A stretch of 64,000 bases of DNA, taken from positions 35,589 to 99,588 of the forward strand of contig CAYFZH010000001.1 of the NCBI GenBank assembly GCA_964347785.1, given 5' to 3'. This document shows, piece after piece, positions 7,187 through 58,519 of this stretch. This DNA is from an uncultured Candidatus Saccharibacteria bacterium (GTDB lineage Bacteria > Patescibacteriota > Minisyncoccia > Phycocordibacterales > Zambryskibacteraceae). The position numbers were made by a program, and so were the translations under genes. The notes under the pieces were generated by a model. The model ran no database searches. It saw only the letters and a program-made list of their open reading frames with translations, and was not told the origin of the DNA. Positions within the stretch are counted from its first letter, which is position 1, and each line of letters opens with the position of its first letter.

Positions 7187-8083
7187 ATGTCGAAGATAAA
7201 AGTTGGTGTGCTCCGTGGTGGACCATCACACGCGTATGATGATTCGCTCAAGACTGGTGGCTATGTACTCTCGCTCTTGCGAAAGATGCCAGAGACTTAT
7301 GAACCAGTCGATCTCTTTGTCTCGAGAAATGGGGACTGGCACTCTGCTGGGCTTGTGACAGAACCTCACGACGTCTTGAGTAAGGTCGATGTGGTGTGGA
7401 ACGCAGTCCACGGTCCTTACGGAGAAGATGGTCAGGTGCAGAAACTCTTCGATAACCTCATGGTTCCATATATTGGTCCGTCCTCATTTTCCTCAGCTCT
7501 GTCTTACAACAAAGACTTCTCCAAAAAGCTTTATACAGAACACTCCCTCCTGACCCCTAGGTCATATGTCTTGAGCGAGGAGAGCGTGAGTGAAGATGAA
7601 TTGGTCAAGGTCTTCCACGCCTTCGTCTACCCTGTGGTGGTAAAGCCTGCCACAGGCTCTCGGGCTCTAGGGGTGAGACTGGCTCACACCTTCCAAGAAC
7701 TCAAGGACTTGGTCAAGAGAACTTTCTCCCACGCCCCTAAGGTGCTAGTTGAGGAGTATGTGAAGGGGAGAGTCTCGACTTGTACAGTAATCGAGGATGC
7801 AAAGGGGGAGAGACTCTACGCACTCCTACCTACAGGTAGACAACCGGTCGAGGTGAACAAGAAGATTGAGGAGATGGCGAAGAAGGCTCATGAGATCCTG
7901 GGTCAGAGACATTTCTCGAGTTCTGACTTCATCATCACTCCGAGAGGGAAGGTGTATATCCTCGAGACCAACTCTGTACCGGTCTTCTACGAAGGTTCAC
8001 ATTTGCATCAGTCTCTAGAGTCTACCGGTTGGCAACCGCAAGACTTCGTCGAACATTGTCTGAAGCTGACTCTCAAGAGTTAG
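7187..8083 (+). CDS. ddl: D-alanine--D-alanine ligase
   Basis: Ddl N-terminal motif (KIKVGVLRGGPSHAYDDSLKTG) and ATP-grasp motifs. The ORF-track start at 7040 is an out-of-frame extension into uvrC. The ATG at 7187 gives 299 aa. Confidence 0.85.
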   Translation: MSKIKVGVLRGGPSHAYDDSLKTGGYVLSLLRKMPETYEPVDLFVSRNGDWHSAGLVTEPHDVLSKVDVVWNAVHGPYGEDGQVQKLFDNLMVPYIGPSSFSSALSYNKDFSKKLYTEHSLLTPRSYVLSEESVSEDELVKVFHAFVYPVVVKPATGSRALGVRLAHTFQELKDLVKRTFSHAPKVLVEEYVKGRVSTCTVIEDAKGERLYALLPTGRQPVEVNKKIEEMAKKAHEILGQRHFSSSDFIITPRGKVYILETNSVPVFYEGSHLHQSLESTGWQPQDFVEHCLKLTLKS

Positions 8084-9043: not shown

Positions 9044-9093
9044 CCACAAAATAAGAAAAGACTGGAGCAGTCCAGTCTTTTCTTATTTTGTGG
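9044..9093. terminator. Perfect 23-bp-arm palindrome (ccacaaaataagaaaagactgga-gcag-tccagtcttttcttattttgtgg), a bidirectional terminator abutting the 3' end of tRNA-Ala(UGC)
   Basis: Exact inverted repeat with a 4-nt loop. The outer arm includes the tRNA 3' end (..TGG). Confidence 0.6.
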
Positions 9094-9163
9094 ACCCTAC
9101 CGGGATCGAACCGGTCACCTCCTCATTGCAAATGAGGCGCTCTACCAGATGAGCTAAGGGCCC
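9091..9163 (-). tRNA. tRNA-Ala (anticodon UGC)
   Basis: 73-nt cloverleaf folded by hand: acceptor GGGCCCU/AGGGUCC with a G3:U70 pair, D-arm GCUC/GAGC containing GG, anticodon loop UUUGCAA, and T-loop UUCGAUC. CCA is not encoded. Confidence 0.85.
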
Positions 9164-9222
9164 TAAATTTCTAACCGATTGATTCTAGTATAAAAATGGA
9201 GCAAAATAAAGCCCTAATAAAA

Positions 9223-9293
9223 GGGCCCATAGTATAGTAGTAACACGCATCCATGGCATGGATGAGTCCGGAGTGCGATTCTCCGTGGGTCCA
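9223..9293 (+). tRNA. tRNA-Ala (anticodon GGC), noncanonical D- and T-loops
   Basis: 71 nt: acceptor GGGCCCA/UGGGUCC with G3:U70, and anticodon stem CAUCC/GGAUG with loop AUGGCAU. The D-loop lacks the conserved GG and the T-loop reads UGCGAUU (G at position 55). CCA is not encoded. Confidence 0.6.
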
Positions 9294-9317
9294 CAAAAGC
9301 GCGGGGCGCTTTTGTGG
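9291..9317 (+). terminator. Perfect palindrome ccacaaaagcgc-ggg-gcgcttttgtgg including the tRNA-Ala(GGC) 3' end
   Basis: 12-bp arms with a T-tract in the 3' arm. It shares the CCACAAAA/TTTTGTGG outer motif with the palindrome at 9044..9093. Confidence 0.5.
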
Positions 9318-9329
9318 CGTGTTCACAAG

Positions 9330-9405
9330 GGACGATTAGCTCAGTTGGTTAGAGCGTACGATTCACATTCGTAAGGTCACAGGTTCAATTCCTGTATCGT
9401 CCACC
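9330..9405 (+). tRNA. tRNA-Val (anticodon CAC)
   Basis: Acceptor GGACGAU/AUCGUCC fully paired, D-arm GCUC/GAGC with GG, anticodon loop UUCACAU, and T-loop UUCAAUU. Discriminator A followed by CC. Confidence 0.85.
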
Positions 9406-56226: not shown

Positions 56227-57267
56227 ATGAAAAAGTGGCTCAAGAGACACTTCATACCCAGAGAGGAGAACGGTTATAGACCTGAGTTTCTCTCTGCACG
56301 CAACATGCGTCACATAGCGGGTGTGGCACTCTTCTTCGAGCTGATTCTCTTCGTCCTACCGTTTCTCAACACCACCACTTACTTCAGTAACCTTGATCTC
56401 TCTGCCGTCCTCCCTGGGGTACTCTCGACTATCACCAATGAAGAGAGGGAGAAGATGGCTCTACCAGAGCTAGTGGAGAACCCTGTGCTCGACAAGGTGG
56501 CACAGATGAAGGCTGAGGATATGGCAAGCAAGGGGTACTTCGCTCACACTTCTCCAGAAGGGAAGAGCCCTTGGTACTGGTTCGATAAGGTTGGTTACAA
56601 ATATCTCTATGCGGGAGAGAACTTGGCGGTTAACTTCTCTGACTCAAGAGAAGTGGCACGCGCTTGGATGAATTCTCCGAGTCACAAGGAGAACATTGTG
56701 AACGCTGGATACACAGAAGTCGGCACAGGGATCGCCTCTGGCGTCTATGAGGGTCGAGAGACTATCTTCGTCGTACAGGTGTACGGATCTCCGTCTGCAA
56801 GAAATGTAGTCGCAAAAGCTAGTAGTGATTTCTTCGCGCTTAACCCTCTCTCCGGGGGCTCCGACACGACTCAGAAATCACAACTAGCTCCTGCTCCTCA
56901 ATCTTTGGCTAAGACTAGCGAGGTGACTACCGAAGTTCTCGGTGCTTCAGAAGTGTCTGTGGCTAAGGTCAATGTCACCGAGAGACTGATGAAGAGTCCT
57001 AGCTTCTGGCAGAAGGCGCTGACTTCTCCAAGTCAGACGACTAGGGCCGTTTTCTACACCATCCTTTCTATTCTCTTTATCGCACTTTTCTTCAATATCG
57101 TGATCCACTTCGAGCGTCAGTATCCAGATCTCATCACCAATGGTCTCGTAGTGGCAGCTCTCATACTCGCTTTCAACATAGGTAACGACATCATCGCCAA
57201 GAGTCGCCTTGAGACCTCCTTTGTCGCCTTCAACAACACCACAGTATCAAGTGTCCCTACAGAGTAG
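56227..57267 (+). CDS. CAP/SCP/PR1-domain protein with N-terminal and C-terminal TM anchors
   Basis: CAP domain motifs (GYFAHTSPEG, GENLA, W.NSPSHKENI, YTEVGTGI). Confidence 0.65.
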   Translation: MKKWLKRHFIPREENGYRPEFLSARNMRHIAGVALFFELILFVLPFLNTTTYFSNLDLSAVLPGVLSTITNEEREKMALPELVENPVLDKVAQMKAEDMASKGYFAHTSPEGKSPWYWFDKVGYKYLYAGENLAVNFSDSREVARAWMNSPSHKENIVNAGYTEVGTGIASGVYEGRETIFVVQVYGSPSARNVVAKASSDFFALNPLSGGSDTTQKSQLAPAPQSLAKTSEVTTEVLGASEVSVAKVNVTERLMKSPSFWQKALTSPSQTTRAVFYTILSILFIALFFNIVIHFERQYPDLITNGLVVAALILAFNIGNDIIAKSRLETSFVAFNNTTVSSVPTE

Positions 57268-57276
57268 TGCTATAAT
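57268..57276 (+). promoter_or_regulatory. Extended -10 promoter TGCTATAAT for the ftsW transcript
   Basis: Perfect TATAAT with an upstream TG, immediately after the CAP-gene stop. Confidence 0.45.
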
Positions 57277-57288
57277 CTGTCATCATGG

Positions 57289-57410
57289 TCCCGTTAGAAG
57301 CCTCGGTCACGGTTTCAATAGGAGCCATAAGTAAATATGAAAAACAATAAAAAATTTATCAGAAATATCATTAAGCAAAGCTCGCTGACCGAGACCTGCT
57401 TCTAACGGGA
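57289..57410 (+). promoter_or_regulatory. About 120-nt structured ftsW 5' leader: 20-25-nt imperfect inverted repeat (tcccgttagaagcctcggtca / tgaccgagacctgcttctaacggga) enclosing an AT-rich loop, with the 3' arm ending at the ftsW ATG
   Basis: The long-range IR closes over the ribosome-loading region. The loop contains a 22-codon micro-ORF (MKNNKKFIRNIIKQSSLTETCF). Confidence 0.4.
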
Positions 57411-58519
57411 TGGCAGTTAGTCGGATAAAGGTGGACAAAAGTTTCCTCTTCGTCACCGTCACGCTCATCGTAGCGGGCTTCTTTATCTTCTCTTCGGCAT
57501 CCTTGGGACTCTTGGCGAAAGAGAGTTCCAACTACTCGAGCGTCGCCTTCTCTCAGACAGTGCTCGGGCTCTTCTTGGGAACTCTCGCGATGATCGTTGC
57601 CACAAGGCTCGATGTGAAGTTCTGGAAGACGTGGGCCTTCTACATATTTGTCCTTGGGATTGTCCTCAACGTGCTCGTACTCTTCCCCCAGATTGGATGG
57701 GAGCATGGTGGTGCAAGACGTTGGATCAAGCTGGGGACATTTTCCTTCCAACCTTCTGAGATTCTCAAGTTCGGTTTCGTAGTCTACTTCGCTGCGTGGT
57801 GTGCCTCGGTCAAGAGTAAGATGGAGAGCTTCTCTCATGGATTTCTACCACTCGTAATGTTGCTCGGTATCTGCGGAGGTCTGCTTCTCCAGCAACCAGA
57901 TACAGATACATTTCTCATCATCGTCGTGACTGGTCTGGCTATGTATCTGGCAGGGGGAGGGAGGTGGCGTTACGTCTTCCTCGTCGGTCTTGTGGGAGTG
58001 ATGGGGCTTGGGTTCCTCGCCTTCACCCGACCTTATGTGATGCAACGTATCGAAACATTCTTCAACCCTACGGCGGATGCTCTGGGAGCGAGTTACCAGA
58101 TCCAGCAGTCTCTCATCGCTATCGGCTCTGGAGGAGTTTTCGGGCGAGGGTTCGGTCAGAGTGTGCAGAAGTTTACTTACTTGCCTGAGCCAGTGGGGGA
58201 CTCAATCTTCGCTGTGGCAGCAGAGGAGTTCGGCTTCGTCGGCTCGGTGGTACTCATAGGACTCTTCCTCCTCTTCGCCATGAGGGGGCTCAAGATCGCA
58301 TCTGCGGTCTCAAATATGCAAGCTCGACTGGTGGTGGTCGGAATTGTTACAATGATCATATCCCAAGCGTTCGTCAATATTGGCGCCATGCTGGGAGTCT
58401 TGCCACTCTCGGGTATTACACTGCCTTTCGTCAGTCACGGGGGCACATCACTCTTCATCAGTCTCTTCGAAGTGGGAGTGTTGCTCTCTATCTCTAAAAT
58501 TCAGAAACAATCCTCATGA
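57410..58519 (+). CDS. ftsW: Peptidoglycan glycosyltransferase FtsW/RodA (SEDS family)
   Basis: 10-TM SEDS consensus (..PSE..K....Y.A.W; GHGGTSL..). 369 aa. Confidence 0.85.
   Translation: MAVSRIKVDKSFLFVTVTLIVAGFFIFSSASLGLLAKESSNYSSVAFSQTVLGLFLGTLAMIVATRLDVKFWKTWAFYIFVLGIVLNVLVLFPQIGWEHGGARRWIKLGTFSFQPSEILKFGFVVYFAAWCASVKSKMESFSHGFLPLVMLLGICGGLLLQQPDTDTFLIIVVTGLAMYLAGGGRWRYVFLVGLVGVMGLGFLAFTRPYVMQRIETFFNPTADALGASYQIQQSLIAIGSGGVFGRGFGQSVQKFTYLPEPVGDSIFAVAAEEFGFVGSVVLIGLFLLFAMRGLKIASAVSNMQARLVVVGIVTMIISQAFVNIGAMLGVLPLSGITLPFVSHGGTSLFISLFEVGVLLSISKIQKQSS

Follow-up and report, generated by a model that had tools for sequence, protein, structure and literature searches.

Several described systems resemble the hairpin element that lies in front of the cell-division gene ftsW in the 64-kb stretch of DNA analysed here (hereafter the window). 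Like the bacterial MITEs Correia/CREE of Neisseria, RUP of Streptococcus and Nezha of cyanobacteria, the element family described below falls in the range of 100–150 bp, with terminal inverted repeats and short direct repeats. As in MITEs, the multiple copies have unrelated flanks, they lie next to genes, with which they would be co-transcribed as an RNA hairpin, and their ends are common to a longer, protein-coding element. Different from MITEs, the coding partner is an 86-aa GIY-YIG nuclease instead of a DDE, tyrosine or serine transposase, and the flanking repeat is ∼4–6 nt in length with the consensus RTNNAY, not TA; moreover, half of the copies sit on a duplicated start codon, in fixed orientation and with an ORF kept open.

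GIY-YIG homing genes (I-TevI, T4 SegA-G) are also small selfish nuclease genes, located between host genes or at their edge and showing presence/absence polymorphism at orthologous sites. Classical homing, however, does not produce terminal inverted repeats, flanking direct repeats or many host genes, whereas the cassettes of the present family have terminal inverted and direct repeats and occur at many different host genes. Compared to the homing enzymes, the nuclease has no DNA-binding extension (NUMOD and similar domains). A homing gene enters one cognate, conserved target allele through repair of a double-strand break and brings neither inverted repeats nor duplications. The window copy itself contains no GIY-YIG ORF; together with the spread over many host genes and the two kinds of repeats, this led us to reject a homing endonuclease gene as its identity. 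The UPF0213 or prokaryotic Slx1-like proteins (BH0048, PDB 1zg2; E. coli YhbQ) consist, like the nuclease described here, of one minimal stand-alone GIY-YIG domain. They have been treated as vertically inherited housekeeping proteins (PMC1564403); different from them, the present gene is part of a cassette that is bounded by repeats and has miniature derivatives. No report on mobility of the UPF0213/Slx1-like family was found in the searchable papers.

REP/REPIN sequences are likewise short, palindromic intergenic repeats forming long hairpins, and their mobilisation in trans by one single-copy nuclease-type gene flanked by the same repeats (RAYT) has a putative parallel here. However, RAYTs are HUH tyrosine (IS200/IS605-like) enzymes, not GIY-YIG; REPs have a GTAG head, lack direct repeats and are not located on start codons. 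REP/RAYT identity was rejected because a defining feature fails. The YTCTAAC and GTTAGAR ends resemble the R''/R' boxes of integrons; an attC site was rejected because the order of the boxes is inverse (GTTAGAR...YTCTAAC), whereas R''(RYYYAAC)...R'(GTTRRRY) at 57–141 bp, beside an intI/attI platform, is required. No integrase was listed among the called genes around the fetched cassette loci. In translational coupling and uORF re-initiation, a stop codon overlaps the next ATG (ATGA) or lies 4 nt before it (TAAnnATG), and the right terminus of the element resembles these systems: two of its reading frames end in a coupling stop of this kind, and the third is fused in frame to the gene. Different from operon coupling, the signal is carried by a mobile element and installed before a formerly leaderless gene, which, being leaderless, previously needed no such signal.

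As detailed below, the ftsW 'leader' is most probably a miniature, non-coding member of a Parcubacteria family of hairpin-ended mobile elements, whose full members carry an 86-aa UPF0213/bacterial Slx1-like GIY-YIG gene; it would have landed on the start of a leaderless ftsW gene, with ATGG on both sides.

The ftsW promoter and the hairpin

The features of the locus are listed in Table 1. FtsW homologues are 363–370 aa in size, and the start codon of the relatives is at the position equivalent to 57410. The typical ftsW layout in relatives is TGnTATAAT, 5–11 nt and ATGGC; a TGnTAnAAT motif was found 5–11 nt before the ftsW ATG in 45 of the 76 relatives, 37 of which also have the TG extension. 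The three closest loci (FtsW identity 82–83%) read TGyTATAAT-N8-11-ATGGC, with nothing between. In the window, TGCTATAAT is 8 nt 5' of another ATG (57285), and the gap 5' of ftsW is 142 nt, compared to mostly 2–60 nt in the 76 relatives. Because the element would have inserted into the start of a leaderless ftsW reading TGCTATAAT-N8-ATGGCA, leaving ATGG on each side, we assigned the window promoter as the old ftsW promoter; by this comparison, TGCTATAAT is the presumptive ancestral leaderless promoter of ftsW, outside the inserted element.

The extended -10 promoter had been noted at 57268–57276 in a preliminary description of this DNA, and it is indeed present there. The same description held that most genes are leaderless, which is partly supported, as a TAnA[AC]T hexamer stands 5–10 nt 5' of the ATG in at least 14 genes of the window. 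A promoter scan of 57268–57412 gave no sigma-70-type two-hexamer promoter. One -10-like TATCAT (57366–57371) in the loop is a possible alternative transcription start. We also searched for an outward promoter restoring a leaderless transcript, but there is no -10 box directly before ftsW ATG 57410, including the right arm.

Table 1. Features at the ftsW locus of the window
Feature	Position	Strand	Remarks
Stop codon of the gene 5' of ftsW	57265–57267	+	TAG
Extended -10 promoter TGCTATAAT	57268–57276	+	TG 57268–69, C 57270, TATAAT 57271–76
Left direct repeat ATGG	57285–57288	+	Ancestral ftsW start codon and next base
ORF1 MVPLEASVTVSIGAISKYEKQ	57285–57350	+	21 codons; starts at the duplicated promoter-proximal ATG, early stop
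Inserted hairpin element	57289–57410	+	Closed by the T57289:A57410 pair
Element core CCCGTTAGA...TCTAACGGG	57290–57409		120 nt
Left outer arm TCCCGTTAGAAGC	57289–57301	+	13 nt, 100% complementary to 57398–57410
Left inner arm CTCGGTCA	57302–57309	+	8/8 pairs complementary
AT-rich interior (loop)	57310–57385	+	76 nt, not conserved between copies
ORF2, micro-ORF MKNNKKFIRNIIKQSSLTETCF	57337–57405	+	22 codons, ...LTETCF; overlaps the end of ORF1
Right inner arm TGACCGAG	57386–57393	+	
3'-side bulge ACCT	57394–57397	+	4 nt, conserved, makes the element asymmetric
Right outer arm GCTTCTAACGGGA	57398–57410	+	Contains stop TAA 57403–57405
Right direct repeat ATGG	57410–57413	+	Present ftsW start codon
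ftsW	57410–58519	+	369 aa; FTSW_RODA_SPOVE domain, E = 2e-92

As described earlier, an inverted repeat spans the loop; it pairs over 13 perfect bp and one 8-bp inner stem (57289–57309/57386–57410). Its 3' arm was said to abut the start codon, and the final base of this arm is in fact the A of ATG 57410. The fold energy is -43.8 kcal/mol (z = -5.5), which was reached by none of 200 shuffles, and the opposite strand folds almost as well. The loop has a GC content of 29%, compared to 49% for the window. Like MITEs, which are smaller than ∼500 bp, the window copy is short (120-nt core, no transposase gene) and has terminal inverted repeats; it contains only ORFs of 21 and 22 codons, with no Pfam match. 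There is no terminator in 57268–57412; the hairpin has no T tract, and a terminator function was rejected for this reason. Rfam 15 gave no match in 57268–57412 even at E ≤ 10, and at gathering score the whole window yielded tRNAs only. Sub-threshold C/D-box matches on the minus strand (57114–57200) are due to chance.

The 64-kb window contains no further copies of the element: one 2-mismatch match of the 13-mer arm at 425–437 is within chance expectation, and the number of chance occurrences expected for the 20-mer arm is 0.00. The window also contains no GIY-YIG gene, so this copy would be non-autonomous. A small inverted-repeat element inserted in the UTR had been considered in the preliminary description; the inserted element stands, but there was probably no UTR before the insertion, and the element itself would have created the leader at a leaderless start codon.

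A family of mobile elements with common termini

Outside the window, at least 120 metagenome contigs carry matches to CCCGTTAGA-N85-115-TCTAACGGG. The fetched loci contain 152 copies with these termini. About half of the copies are located exactly at a start codon, which is duplicated on the other side, and 69 of 150 copies adjoin a start codon that is followed by an ORF of 60 codons or more. The commonest flanks are ATGAAT-element-ATGAA (26 copies); one locus (L171) has flanks like the window's own, CATGGT-element-ATGGCA. Direct repeats of 5 nt or more flank 72 of 153 copies, 58 with 5–6 nt (closing base excluded) and 14 with 6 nt (closing base included). The length and register of the repeat vary (4–6 nt); at 4 nt, that of the window (ATGG) is shorter than the 5–6 nt of most copies. 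The family flanks themselves fit RTNNAY. Copies flanked by GTTTAC or GTTGAC, which might for instance have occupied -35 boxes, do not keep to any consistent distance from genes.

The host genes 3' of the hairpin are unrelated; they include murG, a glycosyltransferase, an ABC transporter ATPase and small membrane proteins. Interiors that are 85–97% identical stand in unrelated flanks, among them a pair located on a single contig (L142, L106), which indicates that the element moves. Contigs L097, L103, L117 and L142 carry 2–3 copies each, compared to one copy in the 64 kb of the window. In the searchable literature, which is incomplete, we found no earlier description of such cassettes; the family is apparently widespread in Parcubacteria and undescribed.

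The window copy belongs to one subfamily of at least 13 copies, which are 113–120 nt in length and have common arms of 22–26 nt, the inner stem and the ACCT bulge. The bulged arm adjoins the host ATG in 13/13 sister copies; the orientation to the host gene is fixed in these copies. The loop of the window copy has no match among the interiors of the other copies; the arms alone match, over 24–26 nt, best to the copy at L192. In the arm alignment, 96% of the cells are paired and five pairs have double-sided changes; the covariation score was reached by none of 500 shuffles. Compensatory changes occur at four of the eight pairs of the inner stem among 14 sister copies; pairing and covariation of the outer arm are seen family-wide at positions -1, 10, 11 and 12, which were not fixed by the search. 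Covariation of the arms is also expected for terminal repeats recognised by a protein; it is compatible with either and is no proof of RNA structure.

GIY-YIG nuclease cassettes with the same ends

The same termini bound cassettes of ∼280 bp that encode one 86-aa GIY-YIG nuclease; full cassettes are organised as ATGAAT-CCCGTTAGAGAT...ATCTCTAACGGG-ATGAAT. Among 120 GIY-YIG homologues, 52 have an MxPVR-like N-terminus, mostly MNPVR (ATG AAT CCC GTT AGA), and 109 have the C-terminus L/Q/I-TG, which corresponds to the right terminus. Other GIY-YIG subfamilies carry different, matching inverted repeats. The nuclease matches 1zg2 with E = 1.4e-8 and one SLX1 homologue with E = 0.007; its sole NCBIfam match is a group I intron endonuclease model, with 21.9 bits versus a cut-off of 56. 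In another lineage, represented by L062, a full cassette is located at the ftsW ATG; ftsW is preceded there by a partial GIY-YIG ORF whose end lies in the right terminus.

The cassettes lack the inner stem and the ACCT bulge of the window subfamily. Some mini-copies are evident deletion derivatives of cassettes: the peptide of one copy (L121) keeps MNPVRDTPMFYT...SLTG, and the L062 mini-copy keeps the coding end GGTTTCCTATCTCTAACGGG. GIY-YIG nucleases are not known to act as transposases. Association with the termini suggests a role of the nuclease in mobility, which would depend on its action on the hairpin or cruciform of the terminal repeats.

ORFs through the element and translational coupling

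The 22-codon micro-ORF of the preliminary description was confirmed (ORF2), whereas ORF1, which opens 8 nt past the -10 box, had been missed. The terminal TAA, 4 nt 5' of the ftsW ATG, is the stop codon of ORF2; AGGAG (57320–57324) lies 12 nt 5' of the ORF2 ATG. The C-terminus of ORF2 (...TCF*) is the same as that of the through-ORFs of sister copies, and ORF2 is the 3' remnant of the through-ORF of the family. The window copy has no single through-ORF; it has two overlapping ORFs instead.

To count through-ORFs, we took those that end at the terminal TAA or at a TGA sharing bases with the host ATG, and those that continue in frame into the host gene. Of 56 copies, 29 have an uninterrupted through-ORF that begins at the duplicated ATG, compared to 6.7 ± 2.3 in shuffles (maximum 14), which points to selected translational coupling; the remaining forward frames are open in 0–1 of the 56 copies. 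Where the first ORF stops early, restart ORFs like ORF2 are weakly and not convincingly enriched (18/27 versus 13.2 ± 2.5). The peptide sequences are not conserved between copies. Taken together, selection appears to maintain, family-wide, an ORF that is translated through the element, because ribosomes are thereby delivered to the host start codon. We found no evidence that the RNA between the two ATGG copies is excised, or bypassed during translation, and the through-ORF signal favours ordinary translation.

In the proposed mechanism, transcription would still begin at the upstream ATG (57285) or close to it, and the ftsW transcript would now carry the element as a structured leader of ∼125 nt, with the true ftsW ATG at the foot of the stem. 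Ribosomes starting at the 5'-terminal ATG would enter the element and melt the stem; they may then terminate at the TAA of the right terminus, 4 nt short of the ftsW ATG, and re-initiate at this ATG. The route in the window copy would consist of two overlapping ORFs (57285–57350, then 57337–57405), versus one through-ORF in half of the family.

Alternative explanations

A cis-regulatory leader of ftsW, acting through structure or a leader peptide, had been suggested; such a host-evolved leader, or an attenuator, would account for the strong hairpin that sequesters the ftsW ATG and for the small ORFs in the leader; the family-wide signal for translated ORFs also implies that translation through the element matters. 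However, the hairpin is absent before ftsW in 79 Zambryskibacteria/Parcubacteria loci (76 relatives and the three closest loci), in which its conservation was checked as proposed, while the same hairpin precedes unrelated genes; neither the interior nor the peptides are conserved, and the Rfam search was negative. The comparative data thus largely refute a host-evolved leader, which we consider very unlikely, and an ftsW cis-regulatory RNA class was rejected for lack of conservation before orthologues and of an Rfam family. What stands of the earlier suggestion of control by structure or leader peptide is the apparently selected translated ORF; an ftsW-specific regulator does not. Still less credible is an independent small structured RNA gene that is transcribed from TGCTATAAT and precedes ftsW by chance. 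The promoter followed by an RNA of ∼125 nt with pairing 5' and 3' ends, and the covarying stems, would suit such a gene; the lack of a terminator and of an Rfam family, the unconserved loop, the equal folding of both strands and the flanking direct repeats do not, and this promoter is found conserved at ftsW in relatives free of the element. Short inverted repeats do arise by chance, as other repeats of the window (I2–I5) show, but a chance palindrome in the intergenic spacer is already refuted by the folding statistics, by the expected frequency of the 20-mer arm and by the hundreds of related copies.

The window copy might also have originated from a full GIY-YIG cassette at ftsW that decayed in place to 120 nt and never moved as a miniature. 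The full cassette at the ftsW ATG in the L062 lineage and the deletion derivatives (L121, L062) are in line with such decay. On the other hand, the subfamily of at least 13 copies has, besides the arms, the inner stem and the bulge that the cassettes lack, and its interiors are 85–86% identical at different loci, which indicates that the miniature form itself spreads. Decay in place is therefore unlikely, though the least improbable of these alternatives, and insertion of a mobile miniature on the ftsW start codon is the reading that we prefer.

Implications

We tentatively propose, with rather less assurance than for the window copy, an undescribed class of mobile elements in Parcubacteria (CPR), with a Slx1-like GIY-YIG gene or nothing between hairpin-forming repeats. 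Such elements would integrate at RTNNAY, above all at the ATGAAY starts of leaderless or coupled genes, take over the host promoter and start codon for their own ORF, and return ribosomes to the regenerated start via the stops of the right terminus. Under the mobile-miniature reading, an insertion placed precisely on the start codon of ftsW, an essential gene of cell division, is tolerated in a genome that is streamlined and mostly leaderless: the ATG is duplicated, and the element itself brings coupling stops. This provides a testable re-initiation model for CPR bacteria, which are not yet amenable to genetics.

The minimal GIY-YIG protein (UPF0213/Slx1-like) is abundant, and its link to repeat-bounded cassettes with miniature derivatives suggests transposition or homing chemistry built on a structure-specific nuclease. 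If this is true, UPF0213/Slx1-like proteins would be nucleases of selfish cassettes, at least in these lineages. The annotation would also be corrected: the ftsW 'leader', the micro-ORFs and the 95-aa 'MNPVR...' GIY-YIG proteins of the databases would all be products of one element family. In addition, the element may serve as a marker of recent genome change, and it is a possible source of mis-assembly and of mis-called starts in Parcubacteria MAGs.

The hairpin at the start codon of ftsW

The hairpin upstream of ftsW is located between an extended -10 box and the start codon. All features of the preliminary description, namely the -10 box, the inverted repeat, the loop, the 3' arm on the ATG and the 22-codon micro-ORF (ORF2), were recovered in the sequence. 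The loop is 76 nt in length and contains 29% GC, compared to 49% for the window; the A of the ftsW ATG is the final base of the 3' arm. The RNA fold of the region reaches -43.8 kcal/mol (z = -5.5, equalled by 0 of 200 shuffles), and the opposite strand folds nearly as stably. ORF1, absent from the preliminary description, starts 8 nt downstream of the -10 box.

Features of the ftsW site, mini-elements at murG and GIY-YIG genes with terminal repeats of their own
Feature	Locus	Positions	Strand	Remark
Stop codon TAG of upstream CAP-domain gene	window	57265-57267
Extended -10	window	57268-57276		TGCTATAAT
ORF1, 21 codons	window	ATG 57285, stop 57348-57350
Outer inverted repeat, 13 nt	window	57289-57301 / 57398-57410		perfect
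Inner stem, 8 bp	window	57302-57309 / 57386-57393
ORF2, 22 codons	window	57337-57405
3'-side bulge ACCT	window	57394-57397		between outer and inner stem
ftsW ORF	window	57410-58519		Pfam E = 2e-92
Mini-element at murG start codon, just after ftsW	L026	3593-3668		Zambryskibacteria-type lineage
Mini-element at murG start codon, just after ftsW	L053	3594-3706		Zambryskibacteria-type lineage
Mini-element at murG start codon, just after ftsW	L062	1364-1490		Zambryskibacteria-type lineage
Small UPF0213-like GIY-YIG gene	L091	1949-2197	-	CCTGTGAAATA/TATTTCACAGG
Small UPF0213-like GIY-YIG gene	L106	1601-1849		ACCCTGGTAAATA/TATTTACCAGGGT
Small UPF0213-like GIY-YIG gene	L173	2670-2930	-	ACCCCGCACCACTTTT/AAAAGTGGTGCGGGGT
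Small UPF0213-like GIY-YIG gene	L173	2098-2268	-	CCCCGCCCTCTA/TAGAGGGCGGGG
Small UPF0213-like GIY-YIG gene	L191	9333-9542	-	CCCCCACCGTTTT/AAAACGGTGGGGG

The only RNAs at Rfam gathering level in the window are three clustered tRNAs at 9090-9405: Ala-TGC (-), Ala-GGC (+) and Val-CAC (+). Inside the CAP-domain gene, 57114-57200 (-) weakly matched archaeal/eukaryotic C/D-box snoRNA models; with 9-15 bits against gathering scores of 36-45 and E = 3.8-8.3, the matches were attributed to chance.

The nearest named relatives of the window FtsW belong to Candidatus Zambryskibacteria and other Parcubacteria. The homologues are 363-370 aa in length and start at the equivalent position, indicating that ATG 57410 is the real start of ftsW; upstream of it, the frame is closed by TGA at 57386. 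For comparison, 80 ftsW loci were collected from species-representative genomes, 76 of them with usable upstream sequence. The gap between the upstream gene and ftsW is mostly 2-60 nt in these 76 loci, compared to 142 nt in the window. In 45 of the 76, the ftsW ATG is preceded at 5-11 nt by a TAnA[AC]T hexamer, with the TG extension in 37 of those 45; ftsW is therefore typically a leaderless first gene, TGnTATAAT-N-ATGGC. Within the window, at least 14 genes carry the same -10-like hexamer 5-10 nt upstream of their ATG (e.g. 654, 5962, 7187, 20733, 28031, 41201, 46666, 52221, 60467), which suggests that operon-first genes may be leaderless in this genome; most of the remaining genes abut or overlap the gene before.

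The three closest loci, which share 82-83% FtsW identity and the CAP-ftsW-murG order with the window, read GTGTTATAAT-TTCCTCCT-ATGGCA and TGCTATAAT-N11-ATGGCG, and none of the three has a hairpin upstream of ftsW. Window positions 57268-57288 keep this arrangement (TGCTATAAT-CTGTCATC-ATGG), followed by the hairpin and then by a second ATGG leading into ftsW; no -10 box was found directly upstream of ATG 57410. In the simplest reading, the hairpin would have been inserted into the start of a leaderless ftsW, leaving ATGG on both sides. The initial proposal of structural or leader-peptide control as a device specific to ftsW is not supported, since the closest relatives lack the hairpin and the same hairpin family occurs at other genes. 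Its alternative, a small inserted repeat element, holds as far as the insertion is concerned, and the site can be sharpened to the start codon of a leaderless ftsW.

Copies of the element at other genes

Inverted pairs of the termini CCCGTTAGA / TCTAACGGG are present in other ftsW loci as well. Besides its mini-element (a short non-coding hairpin) at murG, L026 contains a second copy upstream of another gene; insertions into the cell-division cluster seem to recur in its ftsW-murG part. At least 120 metagenome contigs matched CCCGTTAGA-N85-115-TCTAACGGG, and a total of 152 copies, 50-134 nt in length, was counted across the loci fetched. Leaving aside copies at contig edges, an ATG or GTG with an ORF of 60 codons or more comes directly after the element in 69 of 150 copies. 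The flanks are most often ATGAAT-element-ATGAA (26 copies), then ATGAAC-element-GTGAA (8 copies); one copy (L171) has the flanks CATGGT-element-ATGGCA, identical to those of the window. The inverted repeat reaches two bases past the searched core, with a complementary Y:R closing pair in 144 of 153 copies. Positions 10-12, left free in the search, are variable, yet Watson-Crick in 85-91% of the copies. The flanks on both sides fit RTNNAY, and direct repeats of 5 nt or more occur in 72 of the 153 copies.

Roughly half of the copies lie away from start codons (for instance L104 2307-2492 and 3094-3144, L164 12-117 and L159 273-452), with direct repeats such as GTTTAC, GTTGAC and GTAAAC and a C:G closing pair; no fixed distance to genes was found for these intergenic copies. 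Some form head-to-tail arrays split only by the hexamer, and the junction, TCTAACGGG-GTTTAC-CCCGTTAGA, resembles a recombination core site with 9-bp inverted arms and a 6-bp spacer.

Twenty copy pairs have interiors of 85-100% identity; both 100% pairs are overlapping hits in one locus. In the remaining 18 (85-97%), the 40-nt flanks match at only 8-22 of 40 positions, and such near-identical interiors within unmatched flanks indicate that the element moves. Two of these pairs lie on single contigs (L142, 95.5%; L106, 95.5%, in opposite orientation), and on several contigs 2-3 copies are found in a stretch of a few kb; no further copy was found in the 64-kb window. We consider the window hairpin very probably an inserted member of this family.

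Thirteen sister copies, 113-120 nt in length, share the architecture of the window copy: an outer stem CCCGTTAGARGC / GCYTCTAACGGG, a 3' bulge (A/T/C)CCT, an inner stem GCGGTC / GACCGC and an AT-rich, unconserved interior. In the arm alignment, 96% of the cells are paired, and double-sided changes occur at five pairs (17 cells), such as GGTC/GACC, GATC/GATC and GGAC/GTCC, or G-C to T-A in the window and L192. The covariation score was reached by 0 of 500 shuffles, and slid controls fall to 33-40% paired. In 13 of 13 copies, it is the bulged arm that adjoins the host ATG (probability ~1e-4 under random orientation). The inner stem is absent from the full cassettes, the longer forms with a nuclease gene, indicating that the miniature form is a separate lineage and more than a product of local decay.

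Proposed translation through the element

Depending on the reading frame, the right terminus offers a TAA 4 nt upstream of the host ATG (TC-TAA-CGGG-ATG), a TGA overlapping it if the host starts ATGA (GGG-A-TGA), or an in-frame read-through into the host gene (TCT-AAC-GGG-ATG). In 29 of 56 copies, the ORF from the duplicated upstream ATG is open across the whole element to one of these endings, compared to 6.7 +/- 2.3 (maximum 14 in 500) in composition-preserving shuffles; of the remaining frames in the same 56, the two forward ones are open in 0 and 1 copies and the reverse ones in 0-9. The peptides have only MNPVR and the terminal residues in common, which argues for selection on being translated, not on the product. 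Going by these sequence statistics, we read the through-ORFs as translational coupling: the leaderless 5' ATG would recruit ribosomes, translation would melt the stem burying the host ATG, and termination beside that ATG would allow re-initiation there.

GIY-YIG nuclease genes between the same ends

In L062, a partial ORF ending ...CTAACTCTAACGGG-ATG lies upstream of ftsW; the ftsW start codon is occupied by a full GIY-YIG cassette (positions 1-253, cut at the contig end). Homologues of the ORF comprise 1144 proteins at E <= 1e-5, which are GIY-YIG proteins (PF01541) from lineages of Parcubacteria, 86 or 95 aa in length. Given the same ends, long protein forms were expected to start MNPVR (ATG AAT CCC GTT AGA), and an N-terminal MxPVR-like motif, mostly MNPVR, was indeed present in 52 of the best 120 homologues. 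The C-terminus L/Q/I-TG (CTA ACG GGA), with a TGA overlapping the next ATG, was found in 109 of the same 120. The expectation was confirmed at the DNA level: the L201 cassette reads ATGAAT-CCCGTTAGAGAT-9 nt-ATG...(86 codons)...ATCTCTAACGGG-ATGAAT-ACT, with a host gene of 67 aa behind it. Variants in L207, L213 and L214 are located upstream of glycosyltransferase, GtrA/glycosyltransferase and ABC-transporter ATPase genes, respectively; the stop overlaps the host ATG in L207, and TAA lies 1-3 nt upstream of it in L213 and L214. The MNPVR codons of the 95-aa form consist of the start codon of the host gene, in its duplicated copy, and the left terminal repeat, and the 86-aa form starts at an internal Met, residue 10 of the predicted 95-aa form. 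Judged from their sequences, the 95-aa database proteins (P0121, P0122, P0138, P0149, P0153 and others) are hybrid gene calls.

The cassette protein is related to UPF0213 protein BH0048 (PDB 1zg2, E = 1.4e-8) and weakly to SLX1; its 'minimal, stand-alone' GIY-YIG group has been treated as vertically inherited (PMC1564403). Other small GIY-YIG genes on the fetched contigs are enclosed by inverted repeats of 11-16 bp, differing between genes and matching within each. The left one lies a few to ~17 nt upstream of the ATG, and the right one overlaps the gene at its 3' end. A nuclease gene paired with terminal repeats thus seems to be a general arrangement, in which the nuclease would be the cognate enzyme and not cargo. 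That a GIY-YIG nuclease mobilises the family has, in our estimate, an even chance of being correct.

The mini-element at L123 7266-7369, with CCCGTTAGA termini, is immediately adjacent to a GIY-YIG gene (7375-7623 (-)) that belongs to a more distant subfamily (57% identity to P0153), possibly as a nested or tandem insertion.

Comparison with known systems

In its mode of action the element is comparable to a bacterial MITE, most closely to the Correia elements, with which it has terminal repeats, flanking repeats, co-transcription and the formation of an RNA hairpin in common. The coding partner is similar to free-standing selfish genes of the GIY-YIG type. Different from MITEs and homing genes, the enzyme is a minimal Slx1-like GIY-YIG protein, neither a transposase nor a homing enzyme carrying a DNA-binding domain. 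Compared to both Correia-type MITEs and GIY-YIG selfish genes, the flanking repeat is RTNNAY-like and 4-6 nt in length, the element sits on start codons in fixed orientation, and it would carry a built-in coupling device. None of REP/RAYT, integron attC and classical homing fits, each being contradicted by a defining feature. No description of such elements was found in the literature covered, which included few subscription journals, so an earlier one may exist; the ftsW insertion itself is ordinary, whereas the family revealed by it is not.

Leader ORFs of the window copy

The left flank of the window copy, ATGG-T, is one base short of the usual ATGNNT, putting the upstream ATG out of the canonical frame; with this flank and the early stop of ORF1, the window copy is a somewhat degraded member. 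The ORF2 ATG is located 11 nt upstream of the ORF1 stop. ORF2 ends ...LTETCF-TAA, 4 nt upstream of the ftsW ATG, which is the canonical C-terminus (...ATCF-stop and ...AICF-stop in sister copies). AGGAG at 57320-57324 lies 12 nt upstream of the ORF2 ATG, long for Shine-Dalgarno spacing.

The ftsW gene is intact, and its presumed expression would most probably involve a hand-over in two steps, from ORF1 to ORF2 to ftsW. Instead of a hand-over, direct internal initiation at ftsW is possible, as is an internal promoter, e.g. TATCAT at 57366-57371. That FtsW translation depends on leader-ORF coupling in this copy is proposed tentatively, at slightly less than even confidence. Regarding the hand-over through ORF2, a terminal ATG-ORF of this kind occurs in 18 of the 27 copies with an early stop, compared to 13.2 +/- 2.5 in shuffles, an enrichment that is only suggestive.
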